From assembly GCF_000009965.1 (NCBI RefSeq), contig NC_006624.1, positions 30,001 to 62,000 of the forward strand: a DNA stretch of 32,000 nucleotides, given 5' to 3'. Source of the stretch: Thermococcus kodakarensis KOD1. GTDB lineage: Archaea > Methanobacteriota_B > Thermococci > Thermococcales > Thermococcaceae. The notes beneath the pieces were generated by a model. It did no database searches, had not been told where the DNA came from, and saw only the letters and a program-made list of their open reading frames with translations. The stretch's first letter is position 1, and the number at the start of each line of letters is the position of its first letter. Positions 14,445 to 28,357 of this stretch are shown here, one piece after another. Made by a program: the position numbers and the translations under genes.

Positions 14445-17128
<2,684 letters not shown>

Positions 17129-17170: not shown

Positions 17171-17800
17171 ATGGTCAGGCTCATAGCTTTTGACCTTGAG
17201 GGCACGCTTGTTAGGTCAGTTTCGGGATGGGTCGAACTCCATAAGAGGTTTGGGACTTGGGAGAAGGGAAAGGAGTACGCGGAGGCCTTTTTCAAGGGCG
17301 AGATAGACTACGCCACGTGGCGAGACTGGGATGCTTCCCTCTGGAAAGGGCATACCAAAGACGAGATACTGGAGTGGGTCAGCTCCGTTGAGTACATGGA
17401 GGGTGCGAAGGAGTTAATCGAGCTCCTCAAGGAAAACGGCTTTAAAATAGCCATCTTGAGCAGCGGACTTATGTGCCTCGCTAAGAGGGTCGGCGAAGAA
17501 CTTGGTGTTGACTACGTTTACGCTAACGAGCTGATTTTCGACGATGAAGGGAGGATAACCGGCGAAGTTAACCCGGTTGTTGATTTCCAGGGAAAAGGCG
17601 CTATACTTCGCAGGCTCAAGGAGGAGCTGAAGCCGGAGCTGACCGTGGCCGTTGGCGACGGCTACAACGACATCAGCATGTTCATGGAGGCCGATGTGGC
17701 AATAGCCATAAACCCCCATGAAGGCGTTGAGGGCGACCACAACGTCGAGAGCCTCTACGAGGTCAGGGAGATAATCGAAGAGCTGATACGGGGTCAGTGA
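17171..17800 (+). CDS. HAD-IB family phosphatase (phosphoserine phosphatase-like)
   Basis: Motif I is IAFDLEGTL, motif II ILSSG, and motif IV GDGYNDISM. Length 209 aa. TATA TTTTAAGTA is at 17131. Confidence 0.8.
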   Translation: MVRLIAFDLEGTLVRSVSGWVELHKRFGTWEKGKEYAEAFFKGEIDYATWRDWDASLWKGHTKDEILEWVSSVEYMEGAKELIELLKENGFKIAILSSGLMCLAKRVGEELGVDYVYANELIFDDEGRITGEVNPVVDFQGKGAILRRLKEELKPELTVAVGDGYNDISMFMEADVAIAINPHEGVEGDHNVESLYEVREIIEELIRGQ

Positions 17801-17846
17801 AGGGCGTGCTCATCACAGTCAGCAAAGCAAAAGCTCTTCATCCCCC
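17790..17846 (-). ncRNA. C/D box sRNA (2'-O-methylation guide)
   Basis: Minus strand reads GGGGG-AUGAAGA(C)-12 nt-CUGA(D')-2 nt-GUGAUGA(C')-12 nt-CUGA(D)-CCCC. Both guides are exactly 12 nt, a terminal GGGG/CCCC stem is present, and the GA dinucleotides of all K-turn boxes are intact. The 3' part overlaps the HAD stop codon on the other strand. Confidence 0.8.
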
Positions 17847-17848
17847 GG

Positions 17849-17907
17849 TGTAGGCCTGGCAGGAAGCCCCGGTTCACGTTTCCCCGGGGAGGGCGGGACG
17901 CCAGGCC
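17849..17907 (-). ncRNA. Candidate single-hairpin H/ACA-type sRNA (pseudouridylation guide)
   Basis: Minus strand reads GGCCUGGC (lower stem)-GUCCCGCCCU (5' pocket)-CCCCGG (upper stem)-GGAAACGUGAA (GA-rich K-loop-like apex)-CCGGGG-CUUCCU (3' pocket)-GCCAGGCC-U-ACA. The ACA lies 15 nt from the top of the 3' pocket strand. A TATA-like TTTTAAAG sits ~24 nt upstream. Confidence 0.45.
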
Positions 17908-17927
17908 CAGAGACTTTTGGTTTCAAT

Positions 17928-17935
17928 CTTTAAAA
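17928..17935 (-). promoter_or_regulatory. TATA-like element driving the H/ACA + C/D sRNA pair
   Basis: Minus strand reads TAA(stop)-AGTTTTAAAGATT immediately after the peptidase stop, ~24 nt upstream of the first stem of the H/ACA-like hairpin. Confidence 0.4.
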
Positions 17936-17937
17936 CT

Positions 17938-19140
17938 TTAAAGGCCCATCATTTTAAGCTCCAGCCACCAGAAGATGTCCCCCCAGAAGTAGCTTATCAG
18001 GAAGCCGAGGAATATGGCAGGTGCAAAGGGCATCGCCTTCTTTCTCAGGAACCTGTTTTCCAGCTTCCCCTCTTCAACGAGCTTCTTCAGCTCTTCGATC
18101 TGCTCCTTGGTGAGGCCCTCGGCGGTTGGTGAGGCTACCACTCTTCCCACTTTTGGCCTAATCTCGGAGAAGTCCCATGTCGAGAGTGCTCTCTTGAACC
18201 TCTCAATGGTCCCTTCTCTCTCGCGCTTTACCTCGCCGTTGAGCTCGTGAATGGTCTCACCAAGGATATCCCATTCGTGGAGCTCCTCAACTGGGACTTC
18301 TTCCACGAGGACTTTTCCCCGGAGTATTTTTGCCGTCGAGAGAAGAACCTTCACGGCGTAAATAGTTGCAAGCACCTTTAGCAGGGCGAAGAGGGTCGTA
18401 TCTGGCTGGAGGTACGTCAGGTAGAGAACGCCCGCAATTCCGAGGATGTCCCCCACTGTGCGGTATCTGAGGAATATCGGAAACGCAAGGATGGTCACGA
18501 GAAGTCCGAGCAGGGGTCTGTTGAGGTTCAGCAGGGCAGTAACTGCTATCCCGAACATTATCCACAGCGTTGCTTCAATTGTTGTCCTAATGCCTTCAGT
18601 GAAAACTCTTTTGATATCTTCTGTTTCCTTCCGCACCACCAGTACTCCAAGCGCGTAGGCTATTATAAACGGAAAGACCGCAAGGATGCTGTTGAACAGT
18701 ATTGCGACTGGATAAAACGGGTATCCATCGCCGTACGGTGGCACAATCTTGGCGGTCGGGGGGGCCAGGGGGAGAAGCGCGGAGAACGCGGCTAGTATTA
18801 CTACATCACCGCTGGCCCAGGCGCCGATGTAATACAGGAAAAGGCCGAGTCCAAAGCCCACAAAAAGCCCAATGAGTCCGGAGAGCGCCAGGAGAACGTC
18901 CCCGCTTTTGAGTCCGAGGTATAGGTAGTAAAGAATTCCGATCTCGGCGGAGGGTATGATTATCCTTTCAATCCATCTGGGAAGTCCAACGTCCTCTTCC
19001 TCCTCTTCCCATCCGAGCAGTTTTCCAATGAGCTGAAGTGTTGGGAACGCGTGGACATCGAAGACAAAGCCCGTTTTTATGTCCGTATATGACGTTAAAA
19101 TACCAGTTAGGAGGCCCATCAGAAGAGGTATCAGCTCCAT
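17938..19140 (-). CDS. A24-family aspartic prepilin/prearchaellin peptidase (FlaK/PibD/EppA-like) with inserted soluble domain
   Basis: Polytopic. The first Asp motif is SYTDIKTG in TM1 and the second is IGAWASGDVVILAAF (GxGD-like). The last TM is MPFAPAIFLGF. A ~90-aa hydrophilic insert precedes the last TM. SD GGTGAT. It lies 13 nt downstream of the pilin gene. Confidence 0.8.
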   Translation of the reverse strand: MELIPLLMGLLTGILTSYTDIKTGFVFDVHAFPTLQLIGKLLGWEEEEEDVGLPRWIERIIIPSAEIGILYYLYLGLKSGDVLLALSGLIGLFVGFGLGLFLYYIGAWASGDVVILAAFSALLPLAPPTAKIVPPYGDGYPFYPVAILFNSILAVFPFIIAYALGVLVVRKETEDIKRVFTEGIRTTIEATLWIMFGIAVTALLNLNRPLLGLLVTILAFPIFLRYRTVGDILGIAGVLYLTYLQPDTTLFALLKVLATIYAVKVLLSTAKILRGKVLVEEVPVEELHEWDILGETIHELNGEVKREREGTIERFKRALSTWDFSEIRPKVGRVVASPTAEGLTKEQIEELKKLVEEGKLENRFLRKKAMPFAPAIFLGFLISYFWGDIFWWLELKMMGL

Positions 19141-21413: not shown

Positions 21414-21476
21414 GGGGTCAGCAACGGCAGGGCTCTTCATCGTTTGCCTCGTTTAGCGAAATTATCATCATTCCCC
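21413..21476 (-). ncRNA. C/D box sRNA (2'-O-methylation guide)
   Basis: Minus strand reads GGGG-A-AUGAUGA(C)-UAAUUUCGCUAA(12)-ACGA(degenerate D')-8 nt-AUGAAGA(C')-GCCCUGCCGUUG(12)-CUGA(D)-CCCCC. It starts 7 nt after the stop of the CDP-alcohol phosphatidyltransferase gene. Confidence 0.75.
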
Positions 21477-28300: not shown

Positions 28301-28357
28301 TGCGTCAGCTAATACCGACGTCATCACAGTTCAGACTGGGCAAGGGTCGTCATCCGC
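28301..28357 (-). ncRNA. C/D box sRNA (2'-O-methylation guide)
   Basis: Minus strand reads GCGG-AUGACGA(C)-CCCUUGCCCAGU(12)-CUGA(D')-ACU-GUGAUGA(C')-CGUCGGUAUUAG(12)-CUGA(D)-CGC. Spacing is canonical 12/3/12 with a short terminal stem. Confidence 0.8.

Follow-up and report, generated by a model that had tools for sequence, protein, structure and literature searches.

Described relatives and identity of the locus

Pab21 of Pyrococcus abyssi, the orthologue of the RNA discussed here, is a standard laboratory H/ACA guide. It is equivalent to Pf1 and is conserved in T. kodakarensis (PMC2377435), and it has been assigned to RF00065 with coordinates 230,449-575 and 230,517-575 (PMC4652768), which agree with the family matches in genome G005. 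The architecture of the family is published: a single transcript carries an H/ACA guide and, behind it, a C/D guide (PMC2377435, PMC4652768). Binding of L7Ae to the K-loop, particle assembly, pseudouridylation of 16S rRNA and the existence of long and short forms have all been shown for Pab21 (PMC2377435, PMC3726423).

We analyzed a window of 32,000 nucleotides of the Thermococcus kodakarensis KOD1 genome (positions 30001-62000 of a single-contig genome of 2,088,737 bases), and positions below are those of the window unless marked otherwise. Minus-strand positions 17779-17908 match Rfam snoR9 (RF00065) along the entire model (positions 1-128 of 128), with a score of 126.1 bits (cut-off, 90). 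Given the E value of this match (1.7e-29) and family matches in 73 of the 81 sampled Thermococcales genomes, the tandem RNA is not a product of chance. The locus is snoR9/Tko21, orthologue of P. abyssi Pab21 and P. furiosus Pf1; its 5' half guides one 16S rRNA pseudouridine and its 3' half most likely guides two 23S rRNA ribose methylations.

An initial annotation, made from the letters alone, had read this stretch as an H/ACA-like hairpin abutting a C/D box sRNA. Every element it listed was found at its place on the minus strand, and the Rfam search it proposed returned the full-length, above-cut-off match. The novelty it implied was overrated: the RNA belongs to a known Rfam family, has been named at this same locus, and has a biochemically well-studied orthologue in P. 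abyssi. As a discovery, then, the fused RNA of T. kodakarensis does not matter, being already cataloged and named, but the locus is a good positive control for sequence-only reading, its anatomy having been rebuilt correctly from raw letters.

Promoter, transcript and neighboring genes

The RNA is encoded on the minus strand behind a gene for a 400-residue A24 prepilin-peptidase-like protein (17938..19140, minus strand; weak EppA and FlaK model matches, below cut-offs) and converges with a HAD-IB phosphoserine-phosphatase-like gene (17171..17800, plus strand; TIGR01491, 186 bits against a cut-off of 151.9). The A24 stop codon TAA (17940-17938) abuts the promoter. Its TATA box, TTTTAAAG (17928..17935, minus strand), lies 25-19 nt 5' of the published start, and the purine-rich stretch before it, which includes the A24 stop codon, is likely a BRE. 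The transcription start has been mapped to 17910 (genome 47910, minus strand), where it is listed as snoR9, TKOcandSno19 and Tko21 (PMC4247193, Table S5), two bases ahead of the hairpin. It lies 25 nt from the first T of the TATA box; the median TATA-to-start distance in T. kodakarensis is 23 nt (PMC4247193). The TATA-like element noticed initially after the A24 stop is thus present, but the spacing of about 24 nt given for it is slightly off, the distance from the end of the TATA box to the hairpin being 20 nt. A bacterial promoter scan of the locus was set aside because it does not apply to this system.

With the H/ACA part 5' of the C/D part and a single published start at 17910, the arrangement is that of one transcript, and the proposal that one transcription unit yields both guides agrees with the published descriptions of this family (PMC2377435, PMC4652768) and with the mapped start (PMC4247193, Table S5). 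The promoter just behind the A24 gene would produce one RNA of ~120-130 nt from 17910, a start taken from published dRNA-seq. Northern blots in P. abyssi revealed two in vivo forms of Pab21, one that has the C/D motif and one that lacks it (PMC2377435), and the T. kodakarensis RNA may likewise occur with and without its C/D part. The expectation of separate species of ~57 and ~60 nt is borne out only in part: the P. abyssi H/ACA RNA occurs both joined to the C/D part and free of it; for accumulation of a free C/D half we found no statement in the literature. The next two starts of Table S5, at genome positions 51477 and 58356, are named Tko-sR01 and Tko-sR02/03 (PMC4247193). They coincide with two further C/D sRNAs that Rfam models detect in the window with weak sR39 and snoPyro_CD matches (21416-21475 and 28302-28357, both minus strand), both already known.

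The last 11 nt of the HAD open reading frame are antisense to the 3' end of the C/D part, with the HAD stop codon complementary to the final 3 nt of the D guide, confirming the overlap first noticed there. It is highly improbable that the RNA is mainly an antisense regulator or terminator of the HAD gene acting through these 11 nt, even though the overlap covers the stop codon and the A24 and HAD genes flank the RNA, with the HAD gene convergent, in all inspected loci outside genus g2. This flanking occurs in 0 of 9 g2 loci, where neither gene lies nearer than 1.5 kb although the RNA has its highest scores there; since it is kept in g2 without a HAD neighbor, the overlap is not what keeps it. 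The conserved parts, moreover, are the rRNA-matching cores, and overlap of sRNAs with the 3' ends of convergent genes is common in T. kodakarensis (16 cases, PMC4247193). Elsewhere in the window, an open reading frame for a protein-L-isoaspartate methyltransferase (16470-16991, plus strand) encodes 173 aa and spans only positions 9-171 of a 217-position model.

The H/ACA hairpin

The H/ACA motif, orthologous to that of Pab21/Pf1, occupies 17849..17908 (this and all positions in this section on the minus strand), its hairpin running from 17908 to 17853, and consists of a lower stem, a pseudouridylation pocket, an upper stem, a K-loop and an ACA box. The lower stem pairs GGCCUGGC with GCCAGGCC over 8 bp (17907-17900 with 17860-17853). 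Above it lie the pocket strands of 10 nt (17899-17890) and 6 nt (17866-17861), topped by an upper stem of 6 bp (17889-17884 with 17872-17867). The 11-nt apex, GGA-AACG-UGAA (17873..17883), is a K-loop with tandem G.A pairs, as in archaeal H/ACA guides, and by orthology would be the L7Ae site; L7Ae binds the K-loop of Pab21 (PMC3726423). A U at 17852 precedes the ACA box (17849..17851), with 14 nt between the box and the top of the 3' guide, in line with the rule that places ANA boxes 14-15 nt from the pocket top (PMC4652768).

Across 19 distinct homologues, the two stems are 97.5% paired; in five pairs both partners have changed, and none of the 500 shuffles and no slid register reaches the covariation score. 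These measures are inflated by kinship among the sequences and by derivation of the structure from the same sequences. In this alignment the pocket core never changes, nor do the ACA and the GA and UGA of the K-loop, while the loop otherwise varies. Archaeal H/ACA motifs are described as having a lower stem of 8-9 bp and a covarying upper stem, and the T. kodakarensis hairpin shows both; its lower stem includes a compensatory U-A. The hairpin alone is not unusually stable relative to shuffles (z -1.38), and its minimum-energy fold differs from the functional fold. The evidence is therefore conservation and not folding energy, and minimum-energy folding was discarded as uninformative. That the hairpin is a chance GC-rich stem serving as leader for the C/D RNA, as the unremarkable folding energy and the many relatives with the C/D half alone might suggest, has a practically negligible probability beside an invariant pocket, K-loop and ACA, covarying stems and the published in vitro activity of Pab21, which contradicts it. 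Judged from the covarying stems, the K-loop, the ACA distance and a target equivalent to P. abyssi U891, the H/ACA assignment is not tentative, and the initial annotation underrated it in calling it so.

The T. kodakarensis hairpin has one peculiarity. Position 17866 carries C where most relatives in the alignment carry G, which leaves the upper stem without its bottom C-G pair, a point against the reading of a working guide. This pair is C-G in 15 of the 19 distinct homologues, including the closest sister, and C.A in three; C.C occurs only in T. kodakarensis. The upper (GA) stem comprises three G.A layers, six pairs and a C.C or U.C mismatch, to be set against the ten stacked layers of the archaeal criterion.

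Probable pseudouridylation target in 16S rRNA

Among all U residues of the 16S and 23S rRNAs and the tRNAs, the best two-sided site for the pocket is 16S U870 (genome 2023733), with 5 + 7 pairs; we take this position, like P. abyssi U891, to correspond to E. coli U920. The site reads AGGAA-UU-GGCGGGG. The 3' pocket guide UUCCU (17861..17865, minus strand) pairs with AGGAA, 5' of the target U, and seven nucleotides of the 5' pocket guide GUCCCGCC (17892..17899, minus strand) pair with GGCGGGG, 3' of the UU that is left unpaired. Alone, this complementarity does not exceed chance, as 58 of 300 shuffles score equally well. A scan of all tRNA U residues yielded no competitive target.

Counted from the mature 5' end, the position equivalent to U870 is 879 in genomes G005 and G012 (genus g2), and P. 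furiosus 879 is paired with P. abyssi 891 in Table 1 of PMC2377435. In P. abyssi, U891 was identified as a pseudouridine in vivo by CMCT, Pab21 is active in vitro, the neighboring U892 was negative, and the site was placed at the 16S central pseudoknot (PMC2377435). We rejected the adjacent T. kodakarensis U871 as the pocket target because its equivalent, P. abyssi U892, is negative.

Mechanistically, the hairpin would bind L7Ae at its K-loop and Cbf5-Nop10-Gar1 at its lower stem and ACA, and the pocket would clamp 16S rRNA on both sides of U870, leading to the pseudouridine that has been shown at P. abyssi U891 and that we infer at U870 in T. kodakarensis. Genes for Cbf5 and fibrillarin occur in the genome of T. 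kodakarensis. Separately, genome G021 (genus g4) contains two full 16S rRNA copies, compared with one in the other complete genomes checked.

The C/D box half and its predicted 23S rRNA targets

The C/D box sRNA (17790..17846; all positions in this section on the minus strand) begins 2 nt after the ACA. It is closed by a 4-bp terminal stem, GGGG with CCCC (17846-17843 with 17793-17790), and contains boxes C (AUGAAGA, 17841-17835), D' (CUGA, 17822-17819), C' (GUGAUGA, 17816-17810) and D (CUGA, 17797-17794), the four boxes and 12-nt guides being as first described. The form AUGAAGA is a common variant of box C. The two 12-nt guides are the D' guide (17823..17834), which forms 11 Watson-Crick pairs with 23S rRNA and whose N+5 target is G207 (genome 2024796), and the D guide (17798..17809), which forms 10 such pairs and whose N+5 target is G55 (genome 2024644). 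Both show the 9-10 or more base pairs with rRNA or tRNA and the Watson-Crick pair at D+5 by which C/D guides are recognized. Each site is the best for its guide in all rRNAs and tRNAs; one of 150 shuffled D' guides did as well, against 16 of 150 shuffled D guides, which is weakly above chance. The exact 12-mers initially predicted as targets are absent from every rRNA and found only at the locus itself; pairing with 23S rRNA takes in only 11 of the 12 nt in the D' guide and 10 in the D guide, as is usual. Candidate tRNA targets were limited to G-U-rich pairings with tRNA-Ala/Val that score below the 23S site.

Positions in 23S rRNA were counted from genome 2024590; in PDB 6SKF numbering the targets are ~G63 and ~G215 (P-loop: +8). 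Because the numbering checks disagreed (offset 0 versus +8 at the P-loop), the targets are given by genome coordinate. Both target sites are identical in five relatives, and since they do not vary, compensatory change between guide and target is not seen. Variation among 52 loci falls in the flanks, the boxes and the D'-C' linker and spares the 10-nt guide cores (the D core is kept in 51 of 52, with one G-U), a conservation that is partly circular because these loci were picked by similarity.

L7Ae, Nop5 and fibrillarin would assemble on the 3' part of the RNA, at the C/D and C'/D' motifs, and fibrillarin would then 2'-O-methylate 23S G55 and G207, the predicted ribose methylation targets. No publication was found that maps methylations at these two 23S positions, or that maps the modifications of 16S U870, 23S G55 and G207 in T. 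kodakarensis. With pocket complementarity not above chance and the D guide weakly so, the case for targeting rests on orthology. We hold with high confidence that one promoter drives the snoR9 locus, that its H/ACA half directs pseudouridylation of 16S U870 and that its C/D half, by prediction, directs methylation of 23S G55 and G207. None of the outcomes that the initial annotation had named as fatal to its reading was encountered, because its proposed searches gave the pocket and both guides best sites in rRNA (16S U870, 23S G207 and 23S G55) and because compensatory changes accompany the conservation of hairpin and ACA.

Patchy distribution of the hairpin among relatives

Both halves are present in about 55 of 79 Thermococcaceae genomes (the counts given here cover 78 of these, all but one incomplete genome), namely 52 above the cut-off, of which 31 were inspected, and three with a longer D'-C' linker. 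The hairpin is eroded or partly deleted in 4 of 79, with the C/D half kept, and in 15 of 79 only the C/D half is found (all ten genomes of g5, both of g4, the single g6 and two of g1). In 4 of 79, neither the syntenic site nor a pattern search showed either half. In genomes lacking the hairpin at the locus, the hairpin model found no displaced copy among the 150 candidates scored per genome; weak matches elsewhere belong to the other H/ACA families Pab35, Pab40, Pab91 and Pab105. We found no published account of this patchy distribution.

Several loci illustrate how the RNA varies. In L035, L036, L037 and L044, which resemble snapshots of hairpin decay, the pocket and half stems are deleted or replaced and remnants of the ACA or K-loop persist. 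In five genomes of one genus (L032, L033, L034, L058 and L068), a GC-rich insert of 19-21 nt, apparently hairpin-forming, replaces the 2-4 nt D'-C' linker, with the guides unchanged. The C/D-only RNA of L068 (G076) begins right at the A24 stop codon with no intergenic TATA ahead of it; it may therefore arise by cleavage from the 3' end of the mRNA or from a promoter inside the A24 gene. In L066, L067, L069 and L070 (four genomes of one genus, one of them a single closed contig), the A24 and HAD genes almost touch and the whole sRNA gene is gone, with no copy detected by pattern search.

The patchiness itself is an observation. Erosion within genera that mostly keep the hairpin points to repeated loss; for the deeper pattern, a six-taxon 16S tree is unrooted and too small for ordering gain versus loss. 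We propose tentatively, as a possibility less probable than its negation, that the H/ACA half is an optional module repeatedly lost in Thermococcaceae while the C/D half is kept, that several genera would accordingly be naturally knocked out for the pseudouridine by the 16S central pseudoknot, and that the T. kodakarensis hairpin may be a weakened guide. Relatives without the hairpin would offer a simple comparison for the need of this pseudouridine.

A stronger version, in which only the C/D half works in T. kodakarensis and the hairpin, without the pair closing its pocket top, is in early decay as in the eroded relatives, seems unlikely to us. It would fit the C at 17866, a position at which the sister genome and most others have G, the four eroded and fifteen hairpin-free genomes in which the C/D half persists, and the finding that a single base change can alter the specificity of a guide in this family, as in Pab40 motif 2 (PMC2377435). 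Yet the remaining features are intact (the 8-bp lower stem with its compensatory U-A, the K-loop, the 14-nt ACA distance and the 12 target pairs), the 6-bp upper stem has the commonest functional length, three other distinct homologues also lack the closing pair (C.A), and the T. kodakarensis copy was treated as conserved in PMC2377435. A working H/ACA half remains our preferred reading.

Comparison with known guide RNAs

The other Thermococcales H/ACA guides, Pab19, Pab35/HgcF, Pab40/HgcG, Pab91, Pab105/HgcE and Pab160, share the lower stem, pocket, upper stem, K-loop or K-turn and ACA with Tko21, but their pockets and targets differ. In the parts of the published descriptions available here, a C/D motif is described only for Pab21 among these guides. 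Pab19 was also seen just upstream of the 16S gene at L031:224-327, as already described (PMC4247193).

On the C/D side, the stand-alone sRNAs of Pyrococcus and Thermococcus (clan CL00132, snoPyro_CD) have the same C, D', C' and D boxes, two 12-nt guides and a short terminal stem but, unlike Tko21, are not preceded by an H/ACA hairpin; in genera g4, g5 and g6 the C/D-only form looks exactly like them. With snoR9/Pab21/Pf1/Tko21, the T. kodakarensis locus shares its architecture, the order of its parts, its pocket and guide sequences and its 16S target. It differs from these relatives in one additional nucleotide in the 5' pocket strand, in C instead of G at 17866, in an ACA-to-box C spacing of 7 nt as against 3-5 in most of them, and in its position between A24 and HAD genes, where the P. 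abyssi-like copies of genus g2 are not found.
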